Of a stretch of 64,000 nucleotides of DNA, positions 11,003-59,840 are shown one piece after another. The notes under the pieces were generated by a model. The model had not been told where the DNA came from. It worked only from the letters and a program-made list of their open reading frames with translations, and did not search any database. The translations under genes were made by a program, and so were the position numbers. Position 1 is the stretch's first letter, and the number at the start of each line of letters is the position of its first letter. This DNA is from an uncultured Acidobacteriota bacterium (GTDB lineage Bacteria; Acidobacteriota; Terriglobia; Terriglobales; Acidobacteriaceae): the NCBI GenBank assembly GCA_963766785.1, contig CAVYBV010000003.1, positions 81,504 through 145,503 on the forward strand, written 5' to 3'.

Positions 11003-11260
11003 GTGGGCTCCGTACGGTTCGCGGGAGTTCGATTTGTTGCTTACCCGCAAGACCATGAGCCCGTGCACGTGCACGGGTTCTATGCGGAGACGGAAGCGAT
11101 TGTCGAGTTCCGCGAGGGCCGGCGGGAAGTGGCTCTGGCCGGCCGGAACGACGCCCTTCGGCCGCACAATGCCAGCCGTCGAGACGTGCGTCATATCTTG
11201 GAAGTGGCGGCAAATCATTTCGACGAATTGGTCGAACTTTGGAGAAGCGCACATGCCTGA
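11003..11260 (+). CDS. DUF4160 domain-containing protein
   Basis: 85-aa ORF with a GTG start. The pattern RFVAYPQDHEPVHVHGFY...EAIVEF resembles the DUF4160 core (His-rich HxH strand). Confidence 0.7.
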   Translation: MGSVRFAGVRFVAYPQDHEPVHVHGFYAETEAIVEFREGRREVALAGRNDALRPHNASRRDVRHILEVAANHFDELVELWRSAHA

Positions 11261-11621
11261 ACCGGCAAGAGTAGTAGCGACGGACGCCGAGATAGAAGCG
11301 GGAATCCGGCAGGCTCGCGTGCTCTCGAAATACGACCAACGCGTAGCGCGGGCAAGCTACTCGGCAAGGAATCGCCGCTTGTCGCTGCGCATGGAGAACG
11401 GCACACTCCTCACCATTCCAATCAAGCTGCTTCAGGGCCTCTCTGAAGCATCGCCCTCTGAGCTAAGCCGGATTGAACTGTTGGGCCACGGAACGGGCCT
11501 GTATTGGCCCGCCCTCGACGTCGCACACTTGGTTTCAGGGCTGCTTGCCGGAGTCTACGGCTCCGCGAAATGGATGAGGGAGTTGGAGGGGCAGTCCGAG
11601 CCGAAACGAATTCCCGCCTAG
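11253..11621 (+). CDS. DUF2442 domain-containing protein
   Basis: The ATG at 11253 lies inside track ORF 11034..11621 and overlaps the DUF4160 stop by 8 nt. ...LSLRMENGTLLTIPIKLLQGL...GTGLYWPALDVAHLVSGLLAG matches the DUF2442 pattern. Confidence 0.7.
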   Translation: MPEPARVVATDAEIEAGIRQARVLSKYDQRVARASYSARNRRLSLRMENGTLLTIPIKLLQGLSEASPSELSRIELLGHGTGLYWPALDVAHLVSGLLAGVYGSAKWMRELEGQSEPKRIPA

Positions 11622-11726
11622 ACCTCAGCGCCCCGCCGCCGTCGCGGCCATCTTTTTCGACCGGTGCATAAGGACGGCGTCGGCCGGGCTTTGTTCCGCC
11701 GCGGCGCCATGTCATGCTGAAGGGGA

Positions 11727-15020: not shown

Positions 15021-16085
15021 GTGTACCGCATTGCAATTACCGGCGCTTCGACCCTGCTGGGCAAGGAGCTGAAGGACGTCATCGGAGAATCGCCCCTGGC
15101 CTCGGCCACGTTCACGCTACTGGACGACGAGCCGGCGCAAGGCCAGCTCGACCAGGTGGGCGACGAGATCACCTTCATCCAGCCCATCCTCGCCGACACC
15201 TGGGACAAGGTTGACTTTGCCTTCTTCTGCGGCTCGCGGGAGATGACCCTGAAGCACTGGAAAAACGCGCTTCGCGCCGGCTCAACCGTCATCGATCTTT
15301 CCGGCGCGCTCGATGCCGAGCCGGGCGTAATTGTCCGCGCGCCCTGGCTGGAAACTGAGGCCTCTGCGGAGGATCTGCTGACGCCTGCCATCGTCCCCGC
15401 GCATCCGGCGGCGCTGGCCCTGGCCCTGCTCCTCGGCCGACTTCAGCAAGCTGCGCCGGTGCGCACCGCTGCCGTTACCATGCTTGCGCCGGCCAGCGAA
15501 TTCGGACAAAGCGCCATGGATGAGCTGCACCAGCAGACCGTGAGCCTCCTCAGTTTCCAGGCCATGCCTCGCGCCATCTACGACGCCCAGGCGGCCTACA
15601 ACCTGCTTTGCGGCATGGGCGAGAGCGCCCGGGCCGGCCTGCCTGAGTTGGATGCCCGCATCCGCCACGACTACGCTGCGCTGGGCCGCGGCCGATTGCC
15701 CGCGCTGGCGCTCCAGGTCATCGCCGCGCCCGTCTTCCACGGCCACGCCTTCTCCGTCGCCATCGACCTCGACCGGCCCGTGGAACTTGCCGCCCTTGAA
15801 GAAGCTCTGGGCGGCGAGCACGTTGACCTTGTCCTGGAAGACACGGATTCTCCCTCCAATTTGGCCGCCACCGGGCAAAACGATGTCCTGGTGCGGCTCC
15901 GTCCCGTGCAGCAGGGCCGCAATCCCATGCAATCCTCCCGTTTCTGGCTGTGGGCGGCTTCAGACAATCTGCGCCTCGGGGCCCAGAACGCCGTCGCCTG
16001 CGCCCTCGACCTCCGCCGCCTCCGCCCCCAGGGAACGGTCCAGAAGCGTCCGAATTCGCGGCCGAAGTCGACTCCGCACACTTGA
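15021..16085 (+). CDS. aspartate-semialdehyde dehydrogenase-family protein lacking the catalytic cysteine
   Basis: 354-aa ORF with a Rossmann start IAITGASTLLGKEL. The His region APVFHGHAFSV and the tail LWAASDNLRLGAQNAV resemble Asd. The position of the NPNC(S/T)T nucleophile motif reads IVPAHPAALA, with no Cys. Confidence 0.8.
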   Translation: MYRIAITGASTLLGKELKDVIGESPLASATFTLLDDEPAQGQLDQVGDEITFIQPILADTWDKVDFAFFCGSREMTLKHWKNALRAGSTVIDLSGALDAEPGVIVRAPWLETEASAEDLLTPAIVPAHPAALALALLLGRLQQAAPVRTAAVTMLAPASEFGQSAMDELHQQTVSLLSFQAMPRAIYDAQAAYNLLCGMGESARAGLPELDARIRHDYAALGRGRLPALALQVIAAPVFHGHAFSVAIDLDRPVELAALEEALGGEHVDLVLEDTDSPSNLAATGQNDVLVRLRPVQQGRNPMQSSRFWLWAASDNLRLGAQNAVACALDLRRLRPQGTVQKRPNSRPKSTPHT

Positions 16086-16095
16086 GCATTAACGT

Positions 16096-16812
16096 CTAGG
16101 CGCTCATGCCTTGCCGTCGCCTCGACAGTCGCGTGATGCTCTGGCTGCTCTTGTACCGATCGTGAGACAGACGATTCTTTTCGACCAGTGCGCCCGTGGG
16201 ACACACCTGAACGCATTTCCCGCAGGCGGTGCAACTGGCCGCCGAACCCCACGAGCTGGAAAGGTCGCTCACGATCTGGGAGGCGACTCCGCGGAAGGCA
16301 ACTTCCCATACCCCCGCCCCTTCCACATCGGAACAGGCGCGAATGCAGCGGGTGCAGAGAATGCAGCGGTTGGGGTCAAAGACGAACCGGGGATGGGTCA
16401 TGTCGACGGGCAGAGGCGGCCGGCTGTATTTGTAGCGCACGTGCGCAATTCCCAGCGCCTGCGCCAGCGACTGCAGTTCGCAGGAACCATTGGACACGCA
16501 GACGCTACAGACGTGATTGCGCTCAGAGAGGAGCAGCTCCACGATCATGCGCCGATATTGAGTCAGGGCGGGCGAGTTTGTGCGCAGGGACATGCCGTCC
16601 AGCAAGGGCGTGGTGCAGGCGGGCACCATGCGCTGCGATCCGGCCAGCTCCACCATGCAAACGCGGCACGCTCCGGCGGGCTGGAGGCCTTCCAGGTGGC
16701 ACAGGGTGGGAATATGCCGGTTGTGATCGCGGGCCGCCTCCAGGACGGTTTGGCCCTCCCGGGCGGTGATCAGCTCGCCGTCGAAGCGCACGGAAATGAG
16801 ATTGGGCGGCAC
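16096..16812 (-). CDS. HoxU / NuoG-N-terminal-like iron-sulfur protein ([2Fe-2S] + His-ligated and two Cys4 [4Fe-4S] motifs)
   Basis: Track ORF is 16096..16947. The start is moved to the GTG at 16812, preceded by GAGGA 7 nt upstream and 10 nt after the stop of the upstream gene. Motifs: C-x10-CRVC...C (2Fe-2S), HVCSVCVSNGSC, CILCTRCIRAC, CTACGKCVQVCP. Confidence 0.85.
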   Translation of the reverse strand: MPPNLISVRFDGELITAREGQTVLEAARDHNRHIPTLCHLEGLQPAGACRVCMVELAGSQRMVPACTTPLLDGMSLRTNSPALTQYRRMIVELLLSERNHVCSVCVSNGSCELQSLAQALGIAHVRYKYSRPPLPVDMTHPRFVFDPNRCILCTRCIRACSDVEGAGVWEVAFRGVASQIVSDLSSSWGSAASCTACGKCVQVCPTGALVEKNRLSHDRYKSSQSITRLSRRRQGMSA

Positions 16813-16822
16813 GTTAATGTCC

Positions 16823-19800
16823 TCATGTTGCCGGTGCGGCAACTCGCAAATCGCAGCGGAGGCATCGAAGACACTCCTCCGCAGCCTCGGTTTCGGAAAG
16901 ACCGGCGACGACCTCTTCGCTGGACTGAACACGGGAAGCGGCCGCAACAGAGCCGCCGCGATGGCGTTTGCTCAGGCTGGGCGCATCCGGCGCCGCGCGG
17001 TTGTAATCCAGGTCGGGGAACATGCTGGCCCATCGCGACCCGCCCATCAAACGCTCATCGATGACGCGGGCAGCCTGCTTGCCTCCGGCCATGGCGTTGG
17101 AGACATTGGACGCGCCGGTGATGACGTCGCCTCCGGCGAAGAACCCCTGCCGGCTGGTCTCCTGGGTCAGGCGGTCGACCACCAGCGTGCCTTCGTCCTT
17201 CAGCGCCAGGCCGGAGGCGCGGCAGAAATCCAGATCGAAGGTTTCGCCCACGGCAAGGATGACGGCGTCGCACTCGAACCGCTGCACCTCTTCGGTCGGT
17301 ATGGGCCGGCGGCGGCCGGACTTGTCGTATTCGCCCAGGCGCGTCTTCACAACTTCGAGGGCGCGGACGCAGCCGGCGGCGTTGCCCAGGATGCGATGGG
17401 GCGCGGCTAGGAACACGAAGCGGACGCCTTCTTCTTCAGCCGCATCGATCTCTTCTTCAATGGCCGGCATCTCCTTGCGTTCGCGCCGATAGAAGATGGT
17501 TGCGGCGGCGCCCTTGCGGAGCGCGGTGCGCGCGGAGTCGATGGCCGCATTGCCTCCGCCGATGATGGCCACGCGGCTGGCTTCAGGCAGCGCCTGGCCG
17601 GTAACCGAGGACTGCAGGTAAGGAAGAGCGGGCAGCACGCCCTTCAATTCCGTGCCCGGCAGGTAAAGCCACGACTCCTTCCACGTTCCGATGGAAAGAA
17701 AGACGGCGTCGAAGCGATCGGCCAGCTCATTCAGCGAAACGTCCGTTCCCACCCGCGTGTTGCAGGCCAAGGTGACGCCCAGTCCGCGAATGAGTTCAAT
17801 CTCGCGGCGCAGCACCGATTTCGGCAGCCGGTATTCGGGGATGGCATAACGCAGCATGCCGCCCGGCTCCTGGTGATCGTCGAAGACGGTGACCTCGTGG
17901 CCGAGAAGAGCCAGGTAAAACGCTGCGGTGAGGCCGGTGGGGCCGGCTCCGGCCACGGCGATCCGGTGGCCGGTGGGCGAGAGCTTGCGCGCCGCCACGC
18001 GATCGGCGACGGCCTGAAAGCGATCGGAGGCAAACACGGCATCGGCGATGAACCGATGTGACTGGCGGACATTCACCACTTCGTCGAACGCCTGCCGCCG
18101 GCATCGGTTCTCGCATGGGTGCTGGCAGACCCGACCAGTGGACGCGGGGAGCGGGTTGTCGAGGATGACGGACACAAACGCATCTTCCAGCCGGCCTTCA
18201 TGCAGGAGTTCGAGGAAGCGGGGAATGTTCATGCGCAGCGGGCAACTGTTCTCGCACGGCGAAATGGCCAGCTCCTGGCAGACGCCGGCGCGGCAGCGAT
18301 GGGCCAGGATGTGGTCGTCGTATTCCTCGCGGAAGTGGCGCATCGTGGTCAGGACCGGATTGGGCGCGGAGTGACCGAGACCGCAGAGGGAAGTCTCGCG
18401 AATCATGCGCCCGAGCTCCTCCAGCAGCGCCAGCTCGCGTTCGGTTCCGTTGCCGCGGGTGATGTCGTCCAGGATGTGCAGGGCCTTGTCCAGCCCCACG
18501 CGGCAGGGCACGCACTTGCCGCACGACTCCGAGTGGGTGAACTCAAGGAAATAGCGCGCCACGTCCACCATGCAGTTGTCTTCGTCCATCACCACCATGC
18601 CGCCGGAGCCCATGATGGAGCCGATCTGCGCCAGGCTTTCATAGTCGACCGGGGTGTCGAACATTTCCGTGGGAATGCAGCCGCCTGACGGGCCGCCGGT
18701 CTGCACCGCTTTCACCCTGCGCCCGCCCACCGCACCGCCGCCCACGTCGTAAACAAAGGTTTTCAGCGGCGTGCCCAGCGGCATCTCCACCAGCCCGGTG
18801 TTTTCCACTTTGCCCACCAGTGAGAAAACTTTTGTCCCGGGGCTTTTCACGCTTCCCGTCTCCGCGAACCAGTTGGCGCCGCGGGCGACGATGGGAGCGA
18901 TGTTGCACAAGGTTTCGACGTTATTGATGACGGTGGGCTTTCCCCATAACCCGCGCTGCGCCGGATAGGGAGGACGGGGACGGGGACGGCCGGCCGAGTC
19001 TTCGAGTGAAGCGATCAGCGCCGTCTCTTCTCCGCAAACAAATGCGCCCGCGCCCTGCACCAGGTCGATATCGAATGCGAATCCGCGGTTCAAAATGTTG
19101 GGCCCGAGCAGGCCATACTCGCGCGCCTGCTCGATGGCGCGGGTAAGGCGGCGCACCGCCAGCGGATACTCGGCGCGGACATAGACGATGCCGCGCGTGG
19201 CTCCGGTCGCGTAAGCGCAGATGATCATGCCCTCAAGCAAGGCGTGGGGGTCGCCTTCAATCTCGTTGCGATTCATGTAGGCGCCGGGATCGCCTTCGTC
19301 GGCATTGCAGATGACGAACTTGGCGTCGCCTTTGGCGCGGGCCAGAAACTCCCATTTGTTTCCGGTGAGGAATCCGGCGCCGCCGCGGCCGCGAAGCCGC
19401 GCCGCCTTGATCTGCTCGATCACGGCTTCGGGCCGCTCATCGATGAGAATCTTGTAGAGCGACTGGTAGCCGCCGATGCCGATGTATTCTTCGATGTCTT
19501 CAGGATTGATGAGGCCGCAGCTGCGCAGCACGATTTTGCGCTGACCGTGAAAAAAGGGGATGGCGTCCCAGGAGGCGATCTCAGGGTAACCGGCGCCGTA
19601 GCGCAATTGAGCTGTGATGTGATCCCATTCTTCGATCTTGCAGTAGATCAGTTCAGGCGGCATCACCTGCCCGGCAACGCTCTCGAGCACGCTCTTGGCA
19701 TCCTGGGAGCGCACCCGGCGCAGCATCACCAGAGGAGCGCCGGGGATGTGAACGCCCACAATCGGCTCCTCAAAGCACGCGCCAAAGCAACCCACGCTCA

Positions 19801-19984
19801 CCAGCTCGACGTCCTGCCCGCTGGAGCCGATGGCCTCGTGCAGCGCATGCAGCAGAGCCTCCGCGCCGTTGCCTTGCCCGCAGGTTCCCATGCCCACGGT
19901 AATCCGTGGAATCGGGGGCATCAGCTTGGCCAGCCCGGCTTCGCGAACCGCCTGAAACTCTCCCAGATCGTGGATGCGCGGCAT
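16823..19984 (-). CDS. NuoF/HoxF-like NADH-FMN flavoprotein fused to a GltD-like NADPH/FAD oxidoreductase domain (1053 aa)
   Basis: Track ORF is 16823..20248. The start is moved to the ATG at 19984 (MPRIHDLGEF), 2 nt after the nuoE-like stop, with GAGGAGG upstream. The NuoF core has GRGGAGFLTGNKW (FMN), ADEGDPGAY and ESCGKCVPCR (N3 cluster). The C-terminal half has CxxxC/CxxxC cluster motifs (CENSCP, CQHPCENRC) and the dinucleotide fold IAVAGAGPTGLTAAFYL plus IIGGGNAAID, as in GltD/NfnB. Confidence 0.9.
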   Translation of the reverse strand: MPRIHDLGEFQAVREAGLAKLMPPIPRITVGMGTCGQGNGAEALLHALHEAIGSSGQDVELVSVGCFGACFEEPIVGVHIPGAPLVMLRRVRSQDAKSVLESVAGQVMPPELIYCKIEEWDHITAQLRYGAGYPEIASWDAIPFFHGQRKIVLRSCGLINPEDIEEYIGIGGYQSLYKILIDERPEAVIEQIKAARLRGRGGAGFLTGNKWEFLARAKGDAKFVICNADEGDPGAYMNRNEIEGDPHALLEGMIICAYATGATRGIVYVRAEYPLAVRRLTRAIEQAREYGLLGPNILNRGFAFDIDLVQGAGAFVCGEETALIASLEDSAGRPRPRPPYPAQRGLWGKPTVINNVETLCNIAPIVARGANWFAETGSVKSPGTKVFSLVGKVENTGLVEMPLGTPLKTFVYDVGGGAVGGRRVKAVQTGGPSGGCIPTEMFDTPVDYESLAQIGSIMGSGGMVVMDEDNCMVDVARYFLEFTHSESCGKCVPCRVGLDKALHILDDITRGNGTERELALLEELGRMIRETSLCGLGHSAPNPVLTTMRHFREEYDDHILAHRCRAGVCQELAISPCENSCPLRMNIPRFLELLHEGRLEDAFVSVILDNPLPASTGRVCQHPCENRCRRQAFDEVVNVRQSHRFIADAVFASDRFQAVADRVAARKLSPTGHRIAVAGAGPTGLTAAFYLALLGHEVTVFDDHQEPGGMLRYAIPEYRLPKSVLRREIELIRGLGVTLACNTRVGTDVSLNELADRFDAVFLSIGTWKESWLYLPGTELKGVLPALPYLQSSVTGQALPEASRVAIIGGGNAAIDSARTALRKGAAATIFYRRERKEMPAIEEEIDAAEEEGVRFVFLAAPHRILGNAAGCVRALEVVKTRLGEYDKSGRRRPIPTEEVQRFECDAVILAVGETFDLDFCRASGLALKDEGTLVVDRLTQETSRQGFFAGGDVITGASNVSNAMAGGKQAARVIDERLMGGSRWASMFPDLDYNRAAPDAPSLSKRHRGGSVAAASRVQSSEEVVAGLSETEAAEECLRCLRCDLRVAAPAT

Positions 19985-19986
19985 CG

Positions 19987-20526
19987 TCAGCCCCTCCTCG
20001 GCATCAGGGCGTGCACCTCGCGCTGCAAAGTGCGTTCGTTCACGTGACCGAGAACCTGGTGATTGATTTCGGCCACCGGCGCCAGGGCGCACTGGCCAAA
20101 GCAGGCCACGGTGCGAATGGTGAACTTGCGGTCCGCCGTGGTCAGCGAAAGCTTGTCGGCGCTGCTCAGCTCGTGGCCTTCGCCGGCGGATAATCCCAGG
20201 TCCATGCAAAGCTTCTCGAGAAGATCGCGCGATCCCCGCGTGTGGCACGCCGTGCCGCGGCAGACGCAGATGGTGTGTTCCCCCTGCGGAACCAGGTTGA
20301 AGAGAGCGAAGAAGCTGGCCGCGCTGTAAATTCGCGCCGCGGGCAGTCCGGTTTTTTCCGCGATGGCTTCAAGCGCGGGCAGCGATAGAAAGCGGTGGGG
20401 ATTGCCCCGCTGCACAGCTTCCAGAATCCCCAGCAACGCGCCCGGCCGGTTCTCATGATTGCCGACGCTTTGCTCGATGAGGAGCTTTTCCTGCGGGCTC
20501 AATGGATCTGGCGTTCGAACCTGCAT
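19987..20526 (-). CDS. NuoE/HoxE/HydC-like [2Fe-2S] thioredoxin-fold subunit
   Basis: Track ORF is 19987..20589. The preferred start is the ATG at 20526 (MQVRTPDP), with AGGAGG 4 nt upstream. Cluster ligands sit in CVCRGTAC ... CFGQC. Confidence 0.85.
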   Translation of the reverse strand: MQVRTPDPLSPQEKLLIEQSVGNHENRPGALLGILEAVQRGNPHRFLSLPALEAIAEKTGLPAARIYSAASFFALFNLVPQGEHTICVCRGTACHTRGSRDLLEKLCMDLGLSAGEGHELSSADKLSLTTADRKFTIRTVACFGQCALAPVAEINHQVLGHVNERTLQREVHALMPRRG

Positions 20527-20997
20527 CGATCCTCCTACTGACTTTTCAGCGAGCCCTCTTGCCATCCGATTCCAGGTGTACTGGCCCATGGCGTATCCCC
20601 GGAGAGCACGCTTGCGTGAGATTCGGCGTAAGCGAAAATCCTCCAGCGCAACCCGCGCAAGCGATCGATTTCGCAGACCGTTGCTTCTCCGTGCGAGAAG
20701 CGAATCCGGCTACAGAGCATACTCCAAACCGACCCACCAGCGAAGTGATGCAGAGAAAAAAACGCATTGAGAATCAACGGAATGGATGCGGTCGTGACAC
20801 TCATCACAGGAATGCGGCACGAAAACGTGCTATCACAAGCAGTGCTCCGCTAAACGCTGCGGACTGCGGTCCTGACCTGCCGGCAGACGCTCCCCCGCGA
20901 AGCACTGCCGGCTCGTGCACGTGGGACCCGAGCGGGCATTTCGGAATCAACCCCACGCGTAAAGAAACTGGGCCATTGGTTGCAATGAGAGGACTCG

Positions 20998-23900
20998 ATG
21001 CCGGCTTCAGGCAATGCCGCGCTTCTTCCACTTCCATTCGTTCTTCTTTGTGCCGGCGCGTTGTTCGAACTGTTGATCGGGCGGCTTTTCTCTTCCCGGA
21101 TAAAGGGCGTCATCGCCGTGCTCAGTTCCATTTCGGCACTGGCCGTTGTCGTCGCACTGCTGCCGGCGATCCGAAATGGAACCACCTTCGATCTGCGTTT
21201 GGGAACGTGGGACGGTCCGCTTGCCATCGCCCTGCACGCGGACGCGCTGAGCGCGCTGTTTGCCCTGATGGGAACCCTGCTCGGGACCATCGTGCTGCTT
21301 TACTCCATCGGTTACATGGCCCGGGATCCGGCGGCCACGCGCTTCTACGCCACCATGCTGCTCTTCATCGGCGGCTTTGTGGGCCTGGTCTTCTGCGCCA
21401 ATCTCCTGCTCCTCTATCTCTGCTGGGAGCTGATCGGCCTTTGTTCCTTCAGTCTGGTGGGATTCTGGTATCGCCAGCCCGAGGCAGTTCGCGGCGCGCG
21501 CAAGGTGCTGCTGATGACGCACATTGCCGGCTACGGTCTGCTTGCCGCCGTGCTGGTGTTGTACTTCAGGTCGGGAACGGCCATCTGGACCGACCCCGCG
21601 ATCGCGCACAATTTTTCTACCGGCGTGTTTCTGCTCATGCTGGTGGCGCTGGTCGCCAAGTCGGTGCAGGTTCCGCTGCATACCTGGATACCGGACGCGA
21701 TGGCCGCGCCCACTCCGGTCAGCTCGCTGCTGCACGCGGCCTGCTACGTCACTGCCGGCGTCTACCTGGCCGCGCGCATGCACAGTTTCGCCGCGTGGGC
21801 GCCGGCGTGGAACGCGATCCTTATTGTCATCGCCACCACCACCATGCTTGTGGGCGTGATGTACGCCATGGTGCAGAGCGACCTGAAGCGCATGCTGGCC
21901 TTCTCCACTGTGAGCCAGATCGGTTACATGCTGCTCGGCATCGGCATCGGCACGCCCCTGGGCATCATGGCGGGGCTTCTGCATTGCCTCAATCACGGAT
22001 TCTTCAAAGGCGGGCTGTTCCTCAACGCCGGCGCGGTGCAGCATGCTGCCGGCACCCGCGACATGAACCGCCTGGGCGGGCTGGCCGCGCGCATGCCGCG
22101 CACCACGCTGGCCTGGATGGTGGGCGTGGGCAACATGGCCGGCATTCCCCTCATGAGCGGCTTCGTCAGCAAATGGATGCTGTATGCCGCGGCGCTCCAG
22201 GCGGGCTGGGTCGTGCCCGCGGTGGTGGCGTGGATCGCCAGCCTGGGAACCGTGTTCATCTGCGCCAAGGCCACCAGCGCGGTGTTCTTCGGTCCAACCA
22301 CCGAATGCACCCGCGAAGCCCACGAGGCTTCCCCCTCCATGCAGTGGGCGATGGGACTGATGGCGCTGGGCAGCGTTATTCTCGGCATCGCGCCGCAGAT
22401 TGCCGCGGTTCTGTTCTTCCGGCCGATGCTCTCGGCATTGGGCCTCGACAGCGCGCTGCGCGTTTCCTGGCTGGGATTTTTCAGCGGTGCGGGCGTGTTT
22501 TCCACCAGCGGCGGTCTGGTGCTGGCCGTGTTTTCCTTCCTCCTCGGCGCGGCCATCTTCGCCCTGGCGCGCGTCTCCAGAACGGCTCCGGCGCTGGCTG
22601 CGGCGGGAGCCGGAGGAGGCGTGCTGGCCAGCGGAGGCGGCGGCGTCTTTACCGGCGGCGAACCGCTGTGGAGCCAGGATCATCTGACCGCAAGCGATTT
22701 TTCCCTTATCTTCGAACAGAACTGGCGCGGCTTCTTCCGCTGGTCGAACGTCGATCGCGCCTACGCGTACCTGCTTGCCGGGGTGAGAGCGGTGGCCGGG
22801 GCGCTGGCCCAGCCGGTGTCGTCTATGGCGAGCCGTCCGCTGGGGTGGCTTGCCGTGCTGCCGGTCGCACTTCTTCTCGGCATCCGCTATGCGGTGCATG
22901 CGCCCCTGCTGGCAGCGCAGTTTCCCGCGCTTCCCGTGCCGGAATTGCTCACCGCGGGCCTGTGTTTTGCAGCCGTCGCGCTGGTTTGCGCCGCCGCTGA
23001 AACCAGCGAAGACCGCTTCTTGCCCCTCGAAATCGCCCTCGTTGCCACCTTGTCGATTGCCGGCTGCATCACGGAGCACGAAGGGCCGCGGTACTGGCTG
23101 CTGGAGGCATCGGCGCTGCTGAGCGTGCTGCCGGTGTGGAGAGCGGCGCGCACCCGTTCTTCGCGCCTCCTCTATCTTGCCGTGGTGGTTCTCTCCGCAC
23201 TATGCCTCGGAGTCTCGCAACTGCTGAGCGGCCCTGACCAGATCGACTGGAGCCGGGCCTTCTTCATCACCGGGATCTGCGTCAAGCTGGCCGTCATCCC
23301 GTTCTTCTTCTGGATTCTGCGCCTGGCCGATGAGCTGCCCGCGGTTTTGCTCGGACTGATCGTGGCCGTCATTGACATGGCGGCTGTGGGCGAGGTCCTG
23401 GTGCGCGCTCAATCCGATCCCAACCAGTTCGCGCCCGCGGCCTTTGGCCTCATCCTTGCGTTCCTCTCGAGCTTTGGCGCCGCCCTGCTCATGGTGGCCC
23501 AGCGCAGCCTCAAGCGCCTGCTTGTCCTGTCCAGCATTGAAGACGTCGGCTTTATCATCCTCGGCCTCTCTTCGTTCAGCACCGTGGGCCGCGACGGCGT
23601 TCTGCTGGCCGCGGTAACCCATACCCTGGCCAAAAGTCTTCTCTTCATTTCCATCGCCGCTCCCGAGCGCGACGGCGTGCTGGACGCGAGAGGCACCGGA
23701 ATGGCGGCGCGCTACCCGTTCAGCGCCTTTGCCTTCGTCATCGGAATGTTCGGGATGCTGGGCGTGCCCCCGCTGCTCGGATACGCGGGGCGCTGGAGAC
23801 TCTATGAGGCAGCGCTTGACGTGCATCCGGCGCTGCTGGGCGGATTCATTGCCGCTTCCATCCTCGCCCTCATCGCTTACACCGGCGCGCTGGCCAGATT

Positions 23901-24090
23901 CTGGTGGGGCGCCGCGCATGTTGCCGGGCAGAATGAGATTTACGGCAACGAATCCCGGTGGCACTCTCCTTCGCTGCTACGCGAATCGTGGCTGGTAAGA
24001 GCTGTCATGTTCGTTCTTATTTCCATCCTGGTGGGCGCGGGGCTCTGCCCTCAGTTCGTGCTCCAGGCGTTCCAGGGAGGCCGTCCATGA
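20998..24090 (+). CDS. hydrogenase membrane subunit with two fused antiporter-like (NuoL/MrpA-type) modules, CooM-like (1030 aa)
   Basis: The N-terminal module has the canonical motif AKSVQVPLHTWIPDAMAAPTPVSSLLH and KRMLAFSTVSQIGYM. A Gly-rich linker (AGAGGGVLASGGGGVFTGGEP) follows. The second module is divergent (KLAVIPFFFWILRLADE, KRLLVLSSIEDVGF, HTLAKSLLF). RBS-like AGAGGA sits before the ATG. Confidence 0.85.
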   Translation: MPASGNAALLPLPFVLLCAGALFELLIGRLFSSRIKGVIAVLSSISALAVVVALLPAIRNGTTFDLRLGTWDGPLAIALHADALSALFALMGTLLGTIVLLYSIGYMARDPAATRFYATMLLFIGGFVGLVFCANLLLLYLCWELIGLCSFSLVGFWYRQPEAVRGARKVLLMTHIAGYGLLAAVLVLYFRSGTAIWTDPAIAHNFSTGVFLLMLVALVAKSVQVPLHTWIPDAMAAPTPVSSLLHAACYVTAGVYLAARMHSFAAWAPAWNAILIVIATTTMLVGVMYAMVQSDLKRMLAFSTVSQIGYMLLGIGIGTPLGIMAGLLHCLNHGFFKGGLFLNAGAVQHAAGTRDMNRLGGLAARMPRTTLAWMVGVGNMAGIPLMSGFVSKWMLYAAALQAGWVVPAVVAWIASLGTVFICAKATSAVFFGPTTECTREAHEASPSMQWAMGLMALGSVILGIAPQIAAVLFFRPMLSALGLDSALRVSWLGFFSGAGVFSTSGGLVLAVFSFLLGAAIFALARVSRTAPALAAAGAGGGVLASGGGGVFTGGEPLWSQDHLTASDFSLIFEQNWRGFFRWSNVDRAYAYLLAGVRAVAGALAQPVSSMASRPLGWLAVLPVALLLGIRYAVHAPLLAAQFPALPVPELLTAGLCFAAVALVCAAAETSEDRFLPLEIALVATLSIAGCITEHEGPRYWLLEASALLSVLPVWRAARTRSSRLLYLAVVVLSALCLGVSQLLSGPDQIDWSRAFFITGICVKLAVIPFFFWILRLADELPAVLLGLIVAVIDMAAVGEVLVRAQSDPNQFAPAAFGLILAFLSSFGAALLMVAQRSLKRLLVLSSIEDVGFIILGLSSFSTVGRDGVLLAAVTHTLAKSLLFISIAAPERDGVLDARGTGMAARYPFSAFAFVIGMFGMLGVPPLLGYAGRWRLYEAALDVHPALLGGFIAASILALIAYTGALARFWWGAAHVAGQNEIYGNESRWHSPSLLRESWLVRAVMFVLISILVGAGLCPQFVLQAFQGGRP

Positions 24091-24581
24091 GCTGGTGGAA
24101 TCGTCTGCTTTGTCTCTGCCGCCGCCGCAGCCCGTGGATCTTCCACATGAACTCGGGAAGCTGCAACGGCTGCGATATCGAACTTGTCGCCGCCCTCACC
24201 CCGCGCTACGACGCCGAGCAGCTCGGCGTGCTCCTGCAGGGCAGCCCGCGCCATGCCGACATTGTTTGCGTAACCGGTCCGGTCACGCGCACCGCTGCTC
24301 CGGCCATTCGCAGGGTCTTCGACCAGGTCTGCAGTCCGAAAGCTGTCGTCGCCATCGGATCGTGTCCGGCAACGACCAACGTTTTCATTCAGAGCCGCAC
24401 CCTGGAGGGGCCGCTCGAAAAACATATTCCGGTCGACGTGTTTGTCCCCGGCTGCCCGCCGCGGCCCGACGCCATTATGCGCGGGATCGCCGCAGCCGCC
24501 GGTTTGCTTGCCTCCCGCGGCCGCGAACCCGGCCATCCGTCGCAGCCTGCACCGGAGATTCAACAGGAGGCTGCGAAATGA
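24087..24581 (+). CDS. [NiFe]-hydrogenase group 4 small subunit (NuoB-like)
   Basis: The ATG at 24087 forms an ATGA overlap with the upstream stop, and AGGGAGG precedes it. [4Fe-4S] ligands lie in GSCNGCD ... GSCP ... GCPP. Confidence 0.9.
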   Translation: MSWWNRLLCLCRRRSPWIFHMNSGSCNGCDIELVAALTPRYDAEQLGVLLQGSPRHADIVCVTGPVTRTAAPAIRRVFDQVCSPKAVVAIGSCPATTNVFIQSRTLEGPLEKHIPVDVFVPGCPPRPDAIMRGIAAAAGLLASRGREPGHPSQPAPEIQQEAAK

Positions 24582-25492
24582 ACCTCCTCACCACCCTGGC
24601 GCGATTCTTCATCTTCCCGGGTTTGCTGTTTGCCGTTCCCGCGGCATGGTTTGTTCTCTGGCTGGAGCGCAAAGCGGTGGCGCTGCTGCAGCGGCGGATC
24701 GGACCTCCGTTCGGGCAGCCCTTCTTTGACTTCGTCAAGCTGCTGGGCAAAACCACTCCGCCACGGCCCGGCCTCGAAGGCGCGCTCTTGCGCGCATGGC
24801 CGCTGATCGCGGTATCCGCCGCGGCCGGAGCGGTGGCCATGCTGCCGGTCTTTCCCTCGCGCGGCGGGTTCCCCGGCGACCTCATCCTGCTCCTTGCGCT
24901 GATGGAGATTCCCGCCATTTGCCTCATCGTCGCCGGTTTTACCTCGGGCTCGCTGTTCGGCGAGATCGGCTCCGCCCGCGAAGCTGTGCTTCTGGTCTCC
25001 TACAACGTTGTCTTCCTGCTGGCCGCCTTCTCCATCGCCTCCACCCAGCACACCTTCCGGCTTGAGGCCATCGTCACCGGCCCCGCAACTCCATGGCGCT
25101 GGCTCGGCGTGCTTGCCATCCTCATTTGCCTGCCCGCCAGGCTTCATGTCAATCCTTTCTCCCTGCCCAACGCCGAGCAGGAGATCTACGCCGGACCGAT
25201 GACCGAATACGCCGGATTCGAATTAGCGCTTTGGCAGCTCAGTCACGGGCTGGAATGGATCGCCGGAGTGGGCCTGGTTACAACTCTCGCCATCCCTCCA
25301 TCCCCCCAGGCGTGGCTCACCGTCGCGGAGTTCCTCTTGTTCGGATTTGCCATCGTGCTTCTGCTCTCCCTGGTCGCCGCGGCCACCGCCCGCCTCGCCA
25401 TCGACACTACCGTTCGCTTCTACTGGCGATGCGCCCTGGTGTTCATCGTCGCCGCGTTCTCCTCCGCAATCCTGGTGAGGTGGCGGTCATGA
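24578..25492 (+). CDS. hydrogenase membrane subunit, NuoH/HycD/CooK-like
   Basis: ATGA overlap at 24578-24581 with CAGGAGG upstream. MNLLTTLARFFIFPG...WLERKAVALLQRRIGP is the typical NuoH-family N-terminus. Polytopic membrane protein. Confidence 0.9.
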   Translation: MNLLTTLARFFIFPGLLFAVPAAWFVLWLERKAVALLQRRIGPPFGQPFFDFVKLLGKTTPPRPGLEGALLRAWPLIAVSAAAGAVAMLPVFPSRGGFPGDLILLLALMEIPAICLIVAGFTSGSLFGEIGSAREAVLLVSYNVVFLLAAFSIASTQHTFRLEAIVTGPATPWRWLGVLAILICLPARLHVNPFSLPNAEQEIYAGPMTEYAGFELALWQLSHGLEWIAGVGLVTTLAIPPSPQAWLTVAEFLLFGFAIVLLLSLVAAATARLAIDTTVRFYWRCALVFIVAAFSSAILVRWRS

Positions 25493-25893
25493 AAATGCTG
25501 CGCTTCCTCTGGAAAAACTTATGGAACGGAATCGTGACCCTGCGCTTTCCCGCCCGGCCTGCGGTCGAGGAGCGCTTCCGCGGAAGAATCTGCTTCGATC
25601 CGGAACTCTGCACCGGATGCGCCATGTGCCGCTTCCGCTGCACCAGCGGAGCCATCCGTTTCACCGCGGCCGGCAAGGCCTTCACCTGGGATTACAACCC
25701 CGGACAATGCACGTTTTGCGGCCGCTGCGTTGAAGGATGCAAGGACCACGCCCTCAGCCAGGAATCGGACAGCCCGCCGCTGTACGAAACGGCCGGGGGC
25801 CTGAAGGTCAGCTATACCTTGCAGCGCAAGACGCCGCCGCCCAAATCGCCAGCCGCCCCTGCCGCTGCTACTCAGCCCGGAGGCGCTTCATGA
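25489..25893 (+). CDS. 2x[4Fe-4S] ferredoxin-type subunit (NuoI/HycF/CooX-like)
   Basis: ATGA overlap at 25489-25492. Two motifs, CTGCAMCRFRC and CTFCGRCVEGC. Confidence 0.85.
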   Translation: MKMLRFLWKNLWNGIVTLRFPARPAVEERFRGRICFDPELCTGCAMCRFRCTSGAIRFTAAGKAFTWDYNPGQCTFCGRCVEGCKDHALSQESDSPPLYETAGGLKVSYTLQRKTPPPKSPAAPAAATQPGGAS

Positions 25894-26297
25894 ACCCTGT
25901 CGAGACTGTTGCCGAACAACTCAAGATCAAGGAGCCCACAACCGATGCGAGCGGCGTGAGCTGGTTCCCGACCGAGAACCTCGCCGTGCGCGAGACAGCG
26001 GCTGTCCTTCGTTCCGCGGGAGCCCGCTTTATCACCATCACCGCAACGGAATTGCCGCCCGGCCAGGGTTTTCGCCTCGAATACATCTGGGATCTCGAAG
26101 GCATGCTCCTCGGTTTTGCCTTCCTCATTCCCGGCCGCGAGACCTTCAGCATCTACGACATCACCGAAGCTGCCGACTGGATCGAGCGGGAGGTTCACGA
26201 GGAGTTTGCGATCGACTTTGCCGGCCGCGCCTGCGAGCCGCTTCTGCTGCGCGAGGGCAGCCGGCCCGGCGTGTACCTGCACGAGGTAGCAAAATGA
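25890..26297 (+). CDS. NuoC-like (30-kDa-type) hydrogenase subunit, CooU-like
   Basis: ATGA overlap at 25890-25893. 135 aa. ...ITITATELPPGQGFRLEYIW...ADWIEREVHEEFAIDF fits the Complex1_30kDa fold pattern. Confidence 0.8.
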   Translation: MNPVETVAEQLKIKEPTTDASGVSWFPTENLAVRETAAVLRSAGARFITITATELPPGQGFRLEYIWDLEGMLLGFAFLIPGRETFSIYDITEAADWIEREVHEEFAIDFAGRACEPLLLREGSRPGVYLHEVAK

Positions 26298-27376
26298 GCT
26301 ACAAAATGCCGATGGGCCCCTATCATCCCGGCCTCGAAGAGCCCTACAAGCTGGAGATGATCTGCGAGGGAGAAACCATCTCCGACGCGCAACTCCATAT
26401 AGGCTTTAACTTCAGGGGCATCGAAAACCTGGCCGAGGGGCGCAACTATGTCCAGGTCGTCGCCCTCATGGAAAGAGTCTGCGGCATCTGCTCGTTCATT
26501 CACACCCTCACCCTGTGCCAGGCCATGGAAACGCTCACCGGGCTCACGCCGCCCCCTCGCGCCCGCTATATCCGCGTGATTATGGCGGAGTTAGAGCGCC
26601 TTCACTCGCACGTCCTGTGGGCCGGGATTGCTGCAAAACTGATGGGATTCAAGACGATGTTTATGGCGTGCTTTGAGTACCGGGAGCAGGTGATGGACAT
26701 GCTGGAAGCCATCTCCGGAAACCGGGTGAACTACTCCATGAACCGCGTGGGCGGCGTCAATCGCGATATCGCCGACCCGGAGGCCATCCTGCGCATGGTG
26801 AACGCGCTCGAGGGAGAAATTGCCCGCGTGCTTGTGCCTGTGTTCACCAGCAGCGTAACCGCGCGTTCCCGCTGCGCCGGCATCGGCGTCCTGACCCAGG
26901 AAAAGGCTGCATCCTGCGGCGTGGTCGGCCCCAATGCGCGCGCTTCCGGCATCGCCCAGGACCTGCGCCGCGCCGCGCCCTATGCGGCTTATGAAGAGAT
27001 GGAGTTCGAAGTTCCAGTTGAGACCGCAGGGGATGTGCGAGCACGTCTGATGGTGCGCGCGCTGGAAATGCTGCAGAGCTGCGGCATCCTTCGCCAGGCG
27101 CTCACCCGCCTGCCCGCCGGCGAATTTCACTGCGGCGAAGGCAAACTCTCATTCCCAACCGGAACCGCCGTCAGCCGCGTGGAAGCCCCGCGCGGAGAGG
27201 TCTTCTACAGCGTGAGCTGGAAGGAAAATTCGCGGACTCCGTCCCGGGTTCATGTGCGCACTCCCACCTATGTGAATATGCCCGCCGTGCGCTGGATGGT
27301 GCGGGGCGCGCGCGTCGCCGATGCGCCCCTGATCCAGGCCTCCATCGATCCGTGCTATTCCTGCACCGACCGTTAG
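26294..27376 (+). CDS. [NiFe]-hydrogenase group 4 large (catalytic) subunit, NuoD-like, CooH/EchE-like
   Basis: ATGA overlap at 26294-26297. 360 aa. N-terminal Ni-Fe motif ERVCGICSFIH (RxCGxCxxxH) and C-terminal IDPCYSCTDR (DPCxxCxxR) immediately before the stop. Confidence 0.92.
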   Translation: MSYKMPMGPYHPGLEEPYKLEMICEGETISDAQLHIGFNFRGIENLAEGRNYVQVVALMERVCGICSFIHTLTLCQAMETLTGLTPPPRARYIRVIMAELERLHSHVLWAGIAAKLMGFKTMFMACFEYREQVMDMLEAISGNRVNYSMNRVGGVNRDIADPEAILRMVNALEGEIARVLVPVFTSSVTARSRCAGIGVLTQEKAASCGVVGPNARASGIAQDLRRAAPYAAYEEMEFEVPVETAGDVRARLMVRALEMLQSCGILRQALTRLPAGEFHCGEGKLSFPTGTAVSRVEAPRGEVFYSVSWKENSRTPSRVHVRTPTYVNMPAVRWMVRGARVADAPLIQASIDPCYSCTDR

Positions 27377-27486: not shown

Positions 27487-28131
27487 ATGACCGAGCAAAA
27501 CCAGGCGTCTGTGACTCCGTCCTTCTTCGTGCATCCGCACGGTATCGCCGAAAGCAGCCGGATCGGCGCGGGAACCCGCATCTGGGCCTTCGCGCATGTC
27601 ATGCGCGGCGCTGAGGTTGGGGAGCGGTGTAATGTCGGCGAGCACGCCTTTATCGAAACCGGGGCGATTGTCGGCAACGACGTCACCGTGAAAAACGGCG
27701 TCTCCGTGTGGTCCGGCGTGGTGGTTGAAGATGAAGTTTTCCTCGGCCCCCACTGCATCTTCACCAACGATCCCAATCCGCGCTCCTTCATCAAGAAGGG
27801 CCCGCAGGCCCTGGTGGGAACCTGCGTGCGCCGCGGCGCCACCATCGGTGCGGGCGCGGTCATTGTATGCGGGCATGAGATCGGCCGTTACGCATTTGTC
27901 GGCGCCGGAGCGGTCGTCATTCGCGATGTTCCCGATTTCGCGCTCGTGGTCGGCAACCCCGCCGGCCAGATCGGCTGGATGTGCCTCTGCGCGCAAAAGC
28001 TGCCCCTTTCCTTGACCGCCGCAAGCGGGCAACGCTCGGTCTGCCCCGCATGCGGCTCCGAGTTCGAACGCGTCGAAAGCGGCTTGACCGTGATTTGCGA
28101 CCGCATCCGCGGCAAAAAGGGAATTCCATGA
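27487..28131 (+). CDS. left-handed beta-helix sugar N-acetyltransferase (WbpD/WlbB-like)
   Basis: Start at the ATG at 27487 (MTEQNQ). Hexapeptide repeats run through IGAGTRIWAFAHVMRGAEVGERCNVGEHAFIETGAIVGNDVTVKNGVSVW...FTNDPNPRS. C-terminal GWMCLC...CPACG. Confidence 0.85.
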   Translation: MTEQNQASVTPSFFVHPHGIAESSRIGAGTRIWAFAHVMRGAEVGERCNVGEHAFIETGAIVGNDVTVKNGVSVWSGVVVEDEVFLGPHCIFTNDPNPRSFIKKGPQALVGTCVRRGATIGAGAVIVCGHEIGRYAFVGAGAVVIRDVPDFALVVGNPAGQIGWMCLCAQKLPLSLTAASGQRSVCPACGSEFERVESGLTVICDRIRGKKGIP

Positions 28132-29294
28132 CTCCCTCTGTCCCCTTTGTCGACTTGAAGGCCCAGTACGCCGACATTCGCGCTGAAATTGAGCCTGCAA
28201 TCCAGGAAGTTCTCGAATCGGCTCACTTCGTCGGCGGCCCGGTTCTGGAACGCTTCGAAAGCGAGTTCGCGCATTTCTGCGGGGCAGCCTTTGCCCTCGG
28301 CGTCGCCAACGGAACCGACGCTATCTCGCTGGCGCTGCGCGCCGCCGGCCTCGGCCCCGGCGACGAAGTGCTGGTGCCGGCAAACACCTTCTTTGCCAGT
28401 GCGGAGGCCGTCTCCAACATTGGCGCCGCTCCTGTCTTTGTCGATGTGGACCCGCGGACTTTCCTGATGGATCCGGCTTCCGCTGCGGCGGCTGTCACAC
28501 CGCGCACGCGAGCCATCCTTCCCGTCCATCTCTACGGCCGCGCATTGGACATGGGCCCCTTCGTCGAACTTGCCGCCGCGCATAACCTCACCATCGTCGA
28601 GGATTGTGCCCAGGCCCACGGCGCCACCTTTGCCGGCGAGACGATCGGCGCTTCCGGCCGCCTGACCTGCTACAGCTTTTACCCCGGCAAAAACCTGGGG
28701 GCCTATGGAGACGGCGGCGCAGTTACCACCAACGACCCCGAACTGCGGCAGCGCCTGCTTGAGCTGCGCGACCACGGCAGCCCGCGCAAATACGAACACG
28801 CCCGCGTGGGCTACAACTCCCGTTTGGACGCGCTGCAGGCAGCGGTGCTATCGGTCAAGCTGCGTCACCTGCCCAACTGGAACGCGGCCCGGCGGCGTCA
28901 TGCGGAAACCTATGCGGCCGCGCTCCAGGGTTCGCCCATCCTGCCCCCGGAGATTCCGCCTCCAGGCGGGCATGCCTTTCATCTCTTCGTCGTGCGCTCA
29001 AGCCTCCGCGATCGATTGCAGCAGTTCCTCACCCAGCGGGGTATCGCCACCAGCATCCATTACCCCACTCCCCTGCACCTTACCCAGGCCTATCGGCGGC
29101 TCGGTGCGCCTGCCCGGGGTTCCTTGCCTGTGGCTGAAACCATCGCGGGCGAAATCCTTTCCCTTCCCATGTACGCGGAACTCAGCGCGGAGCAACTGCG
29201 GTATACGGTCGAGGCGATACACGAATTCATTCGCATCGAATGCCCCGCCGCGCCTCCCCAATCCCCAACCCACAATTCCATCGTGCGCAGTTGA
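28128..29294 (+). CDS. DegT/DnrJ/EryC1/StrS-family sugar aminotransferase (WbpE/WlbC-like)
   Basis: ATGA overlap with the acetyltransferase stop. MTPSVPFVDLKAQY, and PLP-lysine region SFYPGKNLGAYGDGG. Confidence 0.9.
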   Translation: MTPSVPFVDLKAQYADIRAEIEPAIQEVLESAHFVGGPVLERFESEFAHFCGAAFALGVANGTDAISLALRAAGLGPGDEVLVPANTFFASAEAVSNIGAAPVFVDVDPRTFLMDPASAAAAVTPRTRAILPVHLYGRALDMGPFVELAAAHNLTIVEDCAQAHGATFAGETIGASGRLTCYSFYPGKNLGAYGDGGAVTTNDPELRQRLLELRDHGSPRKYEHARVGYNSRLDALQAAVLSVKLRHLPNWNAARRRHAETYAAALQGSPILPPEIPPPGGHAFHLFVVRSSLRDRLQQFLTQRGIATSIHYPTPLHLTQAYRRLGAPARGSLPVAETIAGEILSLPMYAELSAEQLRYTVEAIHEFIRIECPAAPPQSPTHNSIVRS

Positions 29295-29819
29295 GCCGCG
29301 CGATTCGTACCCCAACCCCATTCCTTCTCGCCCGATGAACGCGCCTCTCTGCTTTCAGAAACCGTTGCGCCCTTCCTCCAGAGAATTCCGGAGACGACTA
29401 CCCGAATTTGCGGAAGGCCTGCTGATCCGCGACATCAGATTTCTGAAGTATCGTGTTCGGGATTACCAAGGACGCACTCGATTCCATTCCAATTTGAGAA
29501 TGCTGAAATTTAACTGTTCACTTCTTGCCCGGGACCGCTAATATGGACAGAAATAGGCCTTCAGTTTGGGTTCTCATATCCCTGATACAGATGTAGCCCC
29601 GTAGCCTTATCCAGTCAGCGCGTTCGATCGGTTGACCGGCATCAGGCTCAAATCTCAACCCAACGCGTCCCGGCGGTGGCTTCCTAAAAACACCACACGG
29701 GCGTCGCGATCACCGGCATTGCCGCAAGCTTCAGCAGTCCATCGAACCAATGCCCATGCTTGCGGCTAAAATGAGTTCTCTTCGGAGTCCTCTGCTTCGG
29801 GCCTGGAGGCGCAGTTAAC

Positions 29820-59764: not shown

Positions 59765-59840
<76 letters not shown>

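Follow-up and report, generated by a model that had tools for sequence, protein, structure and literature searches.

The locus described here raises the question whether a membrane-bound hydrogenase and a soluble NAD(P)H module, the genes of which lie back to back, work as one enzyme or as two. It occupies positions 16096-27376 of a stretch of contig CAVYBV010000003.1 from an uncultured acidobacterium (this stretch, at its full length of 64 kb, is called the window below). Six genes for a group 4 [NiFe]-hydrogenase diverge there from three genes for a NuoE / NuoF-GltD / HoxU module. Judged by the sequence, we favour with moderate confidence a reading in which these are two self-sufficient enzymes, coupled at most through shared redox pools (ferredoxin, NAD(P)H). 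Each unit occurs mostly alone in other genomes, which argues for the autonomy of both and against an obligate complex.

Gene organization of the locus

A preliminary description of the window had proposed nine genes with the domains given below, arranged divergently around a gap of 471 bp. This layout in two divergent units was confirmed by means of open reading frames (ORFs), Pfam and NCBIfam, and by independent gene calls from public assemblies that contain identical DNA, including the Acidobacteriaceae metagenome-assembled genome GCA_049580425.1. Two start codons were corrected; for the NuoE/HoxE-like gene, the longest ORF of 200 amino acids was shortened to 179. The features are, in their order along the window:

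16096-16812, minus strand: HoxU/BfuA/NuoG-N-terminal-like Fe-S subunit, 238 amino acids, GTG start (NCBIfam HoxU, Pfam)
16823-19984, minus strand: NuoF-GltD fusion (NuoF/HoxF/BfuB-like part plus GltD/NfnL-like FAD-NADPH domain), 1053 amino acids (Pfam)
19987-20526, minus strand: NuoE/HoxE/BfuC-like thioredoxin-fold [2Fe-2S] subunit, 179 amino acids (PF01257, E=1.4e-33)
20527-20997, no strand: divergent intergenic region, 471 bp between start codons (ORF coordinates)
20998-24090, plus strand: fused double antiporter-like membrane subunit (NuoL/M/N, MrpA/D type; CooM counterpart), 1030 amino acids (Proton_antipo_M twice, Proton_antipo_N)
24087-24581, plus strand: NuoB-like hydrogenase small subunit with the proximal [4Fe-4S] cysteines, 164 amino acids (PF01058)
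24578-25492, plus strand: NuoH-like membrane subunit, 304 amino acids (PF00146)
25489-25893, plus strand: NuoI-like 2x[4Fe-4S] subunit, 134 amino acids (Fer4 families)
25890-26297, plus strand: NuoC-like subunit, 135 amino acids (PF00329)
26294-27376, plus strand: [NiFe] group 4 large subunit, 360 amino acids (PF00346 and PF00374)

The ATG of the fusion gene overlaps the stop codon of the NuoE/HoxE-like gene upstream of it. Overlaps of 4 bases exist between all six plus-strand genes, which fits a single operon. A scan of 15.9-27.7 kb for promoters and terminators gave counts at chance level; an Rfam scan of the whole window found only a tRNA-Met (59765-59840) and no match in the intergenic region. 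In a 5.39-Mb assembly of the same organism (locus L002, 4702-8288; ENA ERZ25039507 contig_6046), the antiporter gene is called as two pieces of 563 and 421 amino acids, and the NuoB-like gene is cut to 144 amino acids. Both genes are intact in the window and in other assemblies; the split and the shortening are probably assembly indel errors rather than pseudogenes.

The membrane hydrogenase

The large subunit possesses both Ni-binding motifs, RVCGICSFIH and DPCYSCTDR, which align with those of CooH, MbhL and HycE, and it has no C-terminal extension. As is characteristic of group 4, NuoB-, NuoI-, NuoH- and antiporter-like subunits are encoded in one operon with it (PF01058, Fer4, PF00146, PF00361); the top NCBIfam match of the NuoI-like subunit is a formate hydrogenlyase Fe-S subunit. 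The plus-strand operon is predicted to encode a genuine six-subunit group 4 [NiFe]-hydrogenase. This agrees with the preliminary description, which had also noted the Coo-like subunit set and the lack of a carbon monoxide dehydrogenase (CODH) or formate dehydrogenase (FDH) partner: within the annotated part of the window (~7.5-57 kb), Pfam detected no CODH, FDH, formate channel or hyp genes.

Among solved structures, the large subunit comes closest to MbhL of P. furiosus (3.8e-76) and HycE of E. coli (1.6e-69); NuoD of complex I ranks next. Its identity is 40% to CooH, 39% to MbhL and 39% to HycE. The CooH reference is the R. rubrum protein (P0241), so named by its sources and 100% identical to the bait; at its locus (L174), cooMKLXUH is followed by cooF, cooS, cooC, cooT, a 115-amino-acid ORF and a Crp-family regulator in the cooA position. 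In the CooH search, the 119 other matches listed share at least 64% identity with R. rubrum CooH. In a neighbour-joining tree, the acidobacterial large subunits form a lineage of their own, apart from the CooH clade. Membership in this clade (group 4c) was rejected upon these two observations, the identity of 40% versus at least 64% among the listed CooH relatives and the separate branch. In the phylogenetic comparison, of a kind which the preliminary description had called for, the large subunit, at 39-41% identity to CooH, MbhL and HycE alike, falls outside the CooH clade. In the annotated part of the window, cooF, cooS and cooA are missing, nor were they recognised in the recurrent neighbour families read for 80 related loci. 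In terms of its sequence, the enzyme is a group 4 hydrogenase with the subunit inventory of Coo that stands outside the CooH clade.

The 80 loci constitute a hydrogenase-anchored set from GTDB, collected around the large subunit; all of them belong to Acidobacteriaceae or Terracidiphilus (80/80), in accordance with the earlier assignment of the window to an acidobacterium. The six-gene operon is intact in every one (80/80), and these species-level genomes stem mostly from peat, bog and fen. When databases were searched with the large subunit, each of the best 120 clusters showed 79% identity or more, and homologues with at least 75% identity number in the thousands in Acidobacteriaceae. Group 4 hydrogenases of peat Acidobacteria have been reported before (PMC6018796, PMC9599518), and the novelty which the preliminary description implied for such an enzyme in this phylum was overstated. 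The published labels are inconsistent: the group 4 enzymes of Terracidiphilus and peat genomes are designated 4a/4c in PMC6018796 and 4b/4d in PMC9599518.

The soluble module and its descent

According to Pfam, the NuoF-GltD fusion contains Complex1_51K, SLBB, NADH_4Fe-4S, Fer4_20 and Pyr_redox_2. Its layout comprises an N-terminal thioredoxin-like domain, a site for flavin mononucleotide (FMN) and NADH and the N3/B1 [4Fe-4S] cluster, then Fer4_20 and Pyr_redox_2, the latter two constituting the part for flavin adenine dinucleotide (FAD) and NADPH. Residues 24-572 align to the BfuB chains 7t2r_B (NiFe-HydABCSL), 9n5u_B (NfnB), 8oh5_B (StnB) and 7q4v_B (HydB) (E ~1e-180) and cover nearly the whole BfuB core; the nearest solved relative of this NuoF part is NiFe-HydABCSL (7T2R, 1.1e-184). 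Residues 575-1047 match the GltD inserts of 9bov_A, 9n5u_A and 8oh5_C (1e-94 to 1e-104). The motifs GRGGAGF, DEGDPGA, CGKCVPC, GAGPTG, GGGNAA and YRR are present. Across 84 homologues, the ligand cysteines (including CGKCVPC and C534) and the motifs GRGGAGF and DEGDPGA are invariant, as are Cys35, 66, 70 and 115 of the thioredoxin-like domain in 99-100%. A stretch with H558, C564 and C569 is conserved as well and aligns with BfuB. These residues are candidate ligands for a metal or a cluster at positions like the B5 and B2 sites of BfuB. In NCBIfam, no HoxF model is among the best 25 matches of the fusion, and the NuoF family match remains under its cutoff.

The two smaller subunits present a similar picture. 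For the NuoE/HoxE-like subunit, which shows the [2Fe-2S] pattern C-x4-C...C-x3-C, the top NCBIfam match is HoxE with 104 bits (cutoff 224), and the nearest solved relatives are HydC (8a6t_C), StnA (8oh5_A) and 7t2r_C. The HoxU-like subunit reaches 333.5 bits with NCBIfam HoxU (cutoff 333) and matches Fer2_4, NADH-G_4Fe-4S_3 and Fer4_Nqo3 in Pfam. It has motifs for one [2Fe-2S], one His-ligated [4Fe-4S] and two further [4Fe-4S] clusters, and its nearest solved relative is the N-terminus of 7t2r_A (7.1e-56).

The preliminary description had taken the module for a Stn/Nfn-like member of the Bfu family. In part, this stands: Bfu enzymes are the nearest solved relatives of all three subunits, and the GltD part resembles the NADPH domain of StnC/NfnA. 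In Stn and NfnABC, the GltD/NfnL-like FAD domain serves NADP(H) (PMC10482914, PMC11829005). What did not stand is the family membership. The BfuB alignment stops at about residue 572 after an H-x-C-x-A-x-x-C stretch, the GltD Fer4_20 domain follows directly, and neither Pfam nor the alignment revealed after the NuoF core a Fer4-type domain corresponding to the C-terminal ferredoxin-type domain of BfuB (B3/B4, IPR017896). This domain is part of the definition of the Bfu family (PMC9304861); it is required for ferredoxin reduction and bifurcation, and non-bifurcating homologues do without it (PMC9304861, PMC11829005). As far as its predicted domains go, the module has the same parts as Stn/NfnABC, yet lacks a defining feature of Bfu enzymes. 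It has no catalytic subunit of its own either, as had been noted before: tblastn of the whole 64 kb gave no match to HoxY, HoxH, HoxW or HypF.

The descent of the module was deduced from a fusion-anchored set of 82 loci (80 metagenome loci and two long genomic records), in which Hox genes were located by tblastn. The gene order E, F::GltD, U is kept in every locus with enough contig to show it. HoxY and HoxH, often together with HoxW, come after HoxU in 34 loci, the fusions of which are 63-72% identical to that of the window. The HoxH of these five-gene relatives is nearest to the large subunit of NiFe-HydABCSL (7t2r_D, 7.9e-160). The operon HoxE, HoxF::GltD, HoxU, HoxY, HoxH is found at L128 (9462-15843), in L113, L114, L116, L131, L152 and L168, and in ~27 more loci; it looks like a soluble [NiFe]-hydrogenase with an NADPH/FAD domain that replaces the ferredoxin-site domain of BfuB.

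Where the fusions are 73-79% identical to that of the window, the module is not accompanied by hoxYH in the 10 kb to its left or right. These orphan modules, among them those of the window, of the complete Occallatibacter chromosome CP093313 and of a 3.55-Mb contig, form a single clade in 60/60 bootstraps, with no sequence of the YH type inside. The cofactor ligands are invariant in orphan and YH types alike, which indicates that the orphan module is under purifying selection. We conclude that the window module is, in all appearance, the diaphorase half of a soluble NiFe-Bfu/Hox-type hydrogenase, of which HoxYH was lost once in the ancestor of the clade, and that the remainder was then maintained. 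About 10 representative clusters (clustering at 50% identity) span the whole NuoF-GltD architecture, with 33-51% identity to the window protein; the distribution of the fusion is narrow compared with thousands of plain BfuB, HoxF and NuoF proteins. The literature searched yielded no description of a HoxF/NuoF-GltD fusion or of Bfu members in Acidobacteria, and the HoxF::GltD branch of the Bfu/Hox superfamily is apparently undescribed.

Split hox clusters occur in some cyanobacteria, and the module could likewise still serve a soluble Hox-type hydrogenase as its diaphorase, the hoxYH genes lying at another site in the genome. The HoxU score at the NCBIfam cutoff would suit such an arrangement, and at the source genome the search for HoxY/HoxH covered the 64-kb window. 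We regard it nonetheless as very improbable. HoxY/HoxH accompany the module, within 10 kb to either side, in 0/23 informative stand-alone orphan loci, and no match to them was found in the examined stretches of the 12 genome loci where the module adjoins a group 4 hydrogenase. Moreover, the single clade of orphan loci indicates one ancient loss rather than repeated splitting. The matches in locus L100 belong to a separate canonical HoxEFUYHW cluster a few kb from the orphan module (16.4-22 kb); since this cluster has its own HoxEFU, the orphan module is not the diaphorase of that enzyme.

Conservation of the pairing

In the hydrogenase-anchored set, the module is divergently adjacent to the hydrogenase in 12 of ~58 genomes. 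A canonical HoxEFUYH cluster adjoins it in three loci, downstream of the operon in L074 and L075 (with HypF upstream) and upstream in L080; in 41 informative loci, unrelated neighbours take the place of the module. Upstream, these 41 loci carry a gene for a GH38-like mannosidase and one for a small lipoprotein; downstream, they carry YihY, pyruvate kinase or CrcB/DUF190. Conversely, a group 4 hydrogenase is adjacent in only 1/82 fusion-anchored loci (L105), and neither in Occallatibacter CP093313 nor on the 3.55-Mb contig does a hydrogenase occur in the 10 kb that flank the three-gene module at each end. In a tree of large subunit, NuoH and NuoB (793 columns), the module-adjacent loci form one clade with 78% bootstrap support and no module-less locus inside. 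The preliminary description had held that missing synteny in related genomes would speak against the pairing; synteny is indeed missing in most relatives, and it is conserved inside this one clade. The pairing is restricted to one Acidobacteriaceae lineage.

Within this adjacent clade, module and hydrogenase stay together in every locus while both flanks differ. The downstream 10 kb are not shared between members; L011 and L086, with 94.5% DNA identity, diverge exactly at the stop codon of the large subunit. A similar break was observed for L010 and L011 and for L007 and L008; over the three pairs (83-94.5% identity), DNA homology ends within a few bases of this stop codon, at locus position ~11085. 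On the far side of HoxU, the window carries asd, L171 a LytTR two-component system and L173 an esterase. The history of the pairing is complicated by the fusion tree, in which the hydrogenase-adjacent modules are not monophyletic (0/60 replicates). Either the adjacency may be old within the orphan clade and the hydrogenase was lost repeatedly, or recombination may have been at work.

The junction between the two units has features of its own. The divergent gap measures 471-1187 bp across the module-adjacent loci, that of the window being the shortest. In every module-adjacent locus except the window, a 104-amino-acid ORF lies at the hoxE-antiporter junction (L171, 9046-9360; L173, 9006-9320; L009, L035, L007 and others). 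It is also found in L080 (4300-4614), beside the canonical HoxEFUYH cluster which occupies the place of the module divergently upstream. This ORF has no NCBIfam match; its presence in both the module-adjacent loci and L080 hints at an ancestral hydrogenase island. A 90-amino-acid ORF at 20535-20807 of the window was rejected as its counterpart, as the translations are unlike; it is probably spurious. In addition, a short conserved element, GTGCTCGG-N(6-8)-CCGCGGCG, precedes the antiporter gene by ~130-270 nt; the search pattern matched in module-adjacent loci only (at ~4430-4620 in L008-L086). A diverged copy exists in the window at 20842-20869, and the element has no Rfam match.

Canonical HoxEFUYHW clusters, with HypF in some cases, adjoin the group 4 operon or an orphan module in other Acidobacteriaceae, which suggests that hydrogenase genes cluster into islands in this family. 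The adjacency could be the leftover of such an island without any functional coupling, Hox-type clusters tending to adjoin the group 4 operon. We consider this possible, if rather unlikely. It would account for the canonical HoxEFUYH clusters, with HoxW and HypF, beside the operon in L074, L075 and L080, and for the 104-amino-acid ORF which the L080 junction has in common with the module-adjacent loci. Further, the mannosidase-hydrogenase adjacency is kept in ~39 loci of the sister clade, so that conservation of this kind need not imply function, and each unit is autonomous elsewhere. On the other hand, flanks have been replaced even between relatives as close as L011 and L086, yet the pair was kept in every locus of the adjacent clade. 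An island bearing hyp, CODH or FDH genes was also considered and rejected, as the annotated part of the window lacks them and none was recognised in the recurrent neighbourhoods read.

One complex or two enzymes

Among the nine genes are homologues of NuoE, F, G (N-terminal), I, B, C, D, H and L/M/N. Direct docking to give an NAD(P)H-linked ion-translocating hydrogenase was the second hypothesis of the preliminary description. HoxU would then dock on the NuoI-/NuoB-like arm, and the enzyme would resemble complex I in its build, with the NiFe site in place of the quinone site. The loss of HoxYH from the module, which leaves the HoxU wire without a catalytic end, and the maintenance of the nine-gene block as a unit in the adjacent clade are in line with such docking, and precedents exist as ideas in the Mbh-Bfu enzyme predicted for Dehalococcoides (PMC9304861) and in the docking of HoxEFU to NDH-1 (PMC9414918). 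Still, direct docking is improbable and finds no support in the genomic distribution, as each unit is complete alone in most genomes. The module persists with intact ligands in 23 orphan loci without a hydrogenase within 10 kb, including Occallatibacter, and most genomes keep the hydrogenase in the absence of the module, with little difference in its subunit lengths. These lengths show no obvious difference between the clades, although no dedicated comparison of clade-specific changes was made. Two divergent transcription units are also unlike the single interleaved Mbh-Bfu operon. Finally, HoxU is devoid of the C-terminal domain of NuoG, which helps to anchor the N-module of complex I.

For two autonomous enzymes, the reading we favour, the following roles are conceivable. 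By analogy with Coo, Mbh and Ech, the membrane hydrogenase would take electrons from reduced ferredoxin and reduce protons to H2, or operate in reverse, and its NuoH-like and double antiporter-like subunits would move ions. As no donor module is dedicated to it, its likely partner is the general ferredoxin pool of an acidobacterium that ferments in peat. In the soluble module, Fe-S clusters would link an FMN/NADH site to an FAD/NADPH site, and the HoxU wire would lead to no catalytic site. The most likely role of the module is the exchange of reducing equivalents between NADH and NADPH; in addition, HoxU may pass single electrons to ferredoxin or flavodoxin, which would constitute a Stn/Nfn-like role. 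A functional link in the adjacent clade, if there is any, would most likely be indirect, via the ferredoxin and NAD(P)H pools: the module might, for example, adjust these pools, from which the hydrogenase would release reductant as H2. An indirect link of this kind is more likely than a joint complex.

Several points weigh against this interpretation. The ferredoxin dependence of the hydrogenase rests on a homology of ~40% to characterised enzymes. The module is without the B3/B4 domain which NfnABC uses to reduce ferredoxin, and this makes the ferredoxin link speculative. A plain NADH:NADP+ transhydrogenase, or another acceptor at HoxU, is equally possible. Last, the maintenance of a nine-gene block amid changing flanks exceeds neutral synteny and leaves room for a tighter coupling.

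Neighbouring genes

The annotated neighbours of the locus are housekeeping, polysaccharide and peptidase genes (Pfam). The next gene converges on the module, as described before; it is semialdehyde-dehydrogenase-like (asd, 15021-16085), and its stop codon and that of HoxU are 10 bp apart. Downstream of the large subunit, genes for a hexapeptide transferase, a DegT aminotransferase and a sugar transferase follow at 27487-31307; the region from 27377 on is a polysaccharide locus, of a typically hypervariable sort. Two elements resemble toxin-antitoxin modules and have no relation to hydrogenase or module: a DUF4160/DUF2442 pair at ~11003-11630 and a HicA-like small ORF at ~37.1-37.3 kb.

Implications

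Anoxic peat is dominated by Acidobacteriaceae such as Terracidiphilus, whose hydrogen metabolism feeds methanogenesis. The group 4 hydrogenase abundant in them stands alone, as a six-gene unit that has neither a CO nor a formate module. This points to ferredoxin-linked fermentative H2 release and may help to correct the inconsistent survey labels 4a/4b/4c/4d. The special pairing of an NAD(P)H module with a hydrogenase holds for one lineage only, and a physical complex is probably not formed. If the pairing were physical, it would bear on the assembly of complex I: a docked enzyme would be a living analogue of its proposed ancestor, a soluble diaphorase fused with a membrane hydrogenase, and the ion gradient could push electrons of NAD(P)H onto protons. 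More interesting than the pairing originally claimed is the HoxF::GltD branch, which comprises a five-subunit soluble hydrogenase and a hydrogenase-less three-subunit derivative. The derivative is widespread in soil Acidobacteria, including the cultured Occallatibacter, and offers a tractable system to determine which parts of the Bfu core bifurcation needs.

Comparison with known systems

Among the membrane enzymes, the CO-induced CooMKLXUH of R. rubrum (group 4c) matches the window hydrogenase in composition. A comparison with L174 shows the same six-subunit inventory, including a giant fused antiporter-like subunit and a large subunit of ~360 amino acids without C-terminal extension. The two differ in sequence, with 29-49% identity per subunit: 31-35% for the antiporter subunit and CooM, 49% for the NuoB-like subunit and CooL, 32% for the NuoH-like subunit and CooK, 34% for the 2x[4Fe-4S] subunit and CooX, and 29% for the NuoC-like subunit and CooU. 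The gene order is M-B-H-I-C-D here and M-H-B-I-C-D in Coo, the NuoB- and NuoH-like genes being swapped, and the antiporter subunit has 1030 amino acids in contrast to 1265 in Coo. The window hydrogenase is also without cooF, cooS, cooC and cooA. With Mbh (group 4d, P. furiosus 6CFW) and the formate hydrogenlyase Hyc/FHL (group 4a, E. coli 7Z0S), it has the Ni motifs in common, including DPC-x-SCTDR, at ~39% large-subunit identity. Mbh carries a set of small Mrp-type subunits, whereas none were called in the window operon. In HycE, NuoC and NuoD are fused, whereas they are separate here, and FdhF has no counterpart here.

The Mbh-Bfu cluster of Dehalococcoides (Schut et al. 2022, PMC9304861) likewise combines a group 4 hydrogenase set with BfuABC-type genes. 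There, nine genes form one interleaved cluster, read as one enzyme; here, two divergent operons are present, each unit is usually found alone, and the BfuB homologue falls outside the domain definition of the family. In cyanobacteria, HoxE/F/U homologues similarly exist beside a complex-I-like membrane module without NuoEFG. HoxEFU, reported to interact with NAD(P)+ and ferredoxin, keeps HoxYH there and has no GltD fusion; its proposed membrane partner is NDH-1 and no hydrogenase (PMC9414918). From HoxEFUYH of the group 3d type, the window module differs by the lack of hoxY and hoxH. The electron-bifurcating NiFe-HydABCSL of Acetomicrobium mobile (7T2R) is the nearest solved relative of both the NuoF part and HoxU, and HoxE is close. 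Its B3/B4 domain in BfuB is replaced here by the GltD FAD/NADPH domain, and its hydrogenase subunits S and L are missing in the window.

StnABC and NfnABC are similar in their overall composition, a core of NuoE-, NuoF- and HydA-N/HoxU-like subunits with a GltD/NfnL-like domain and without any H2- or formate-converting site. Note that GltD is fused to the B subunit here and inserted in the A subunit there. The A-type subunit is represented here by the 238-amino-acid HoxU-like protein only, with no remnant of an FDH/NuoG-like domain, and the B3/B4 ferredoxin-site domain is not part of the window module. The hosts differ as well: those of the window module are soil Acidobacteriaceae, including the cultured Occallatibacter, which is described as aerobic.

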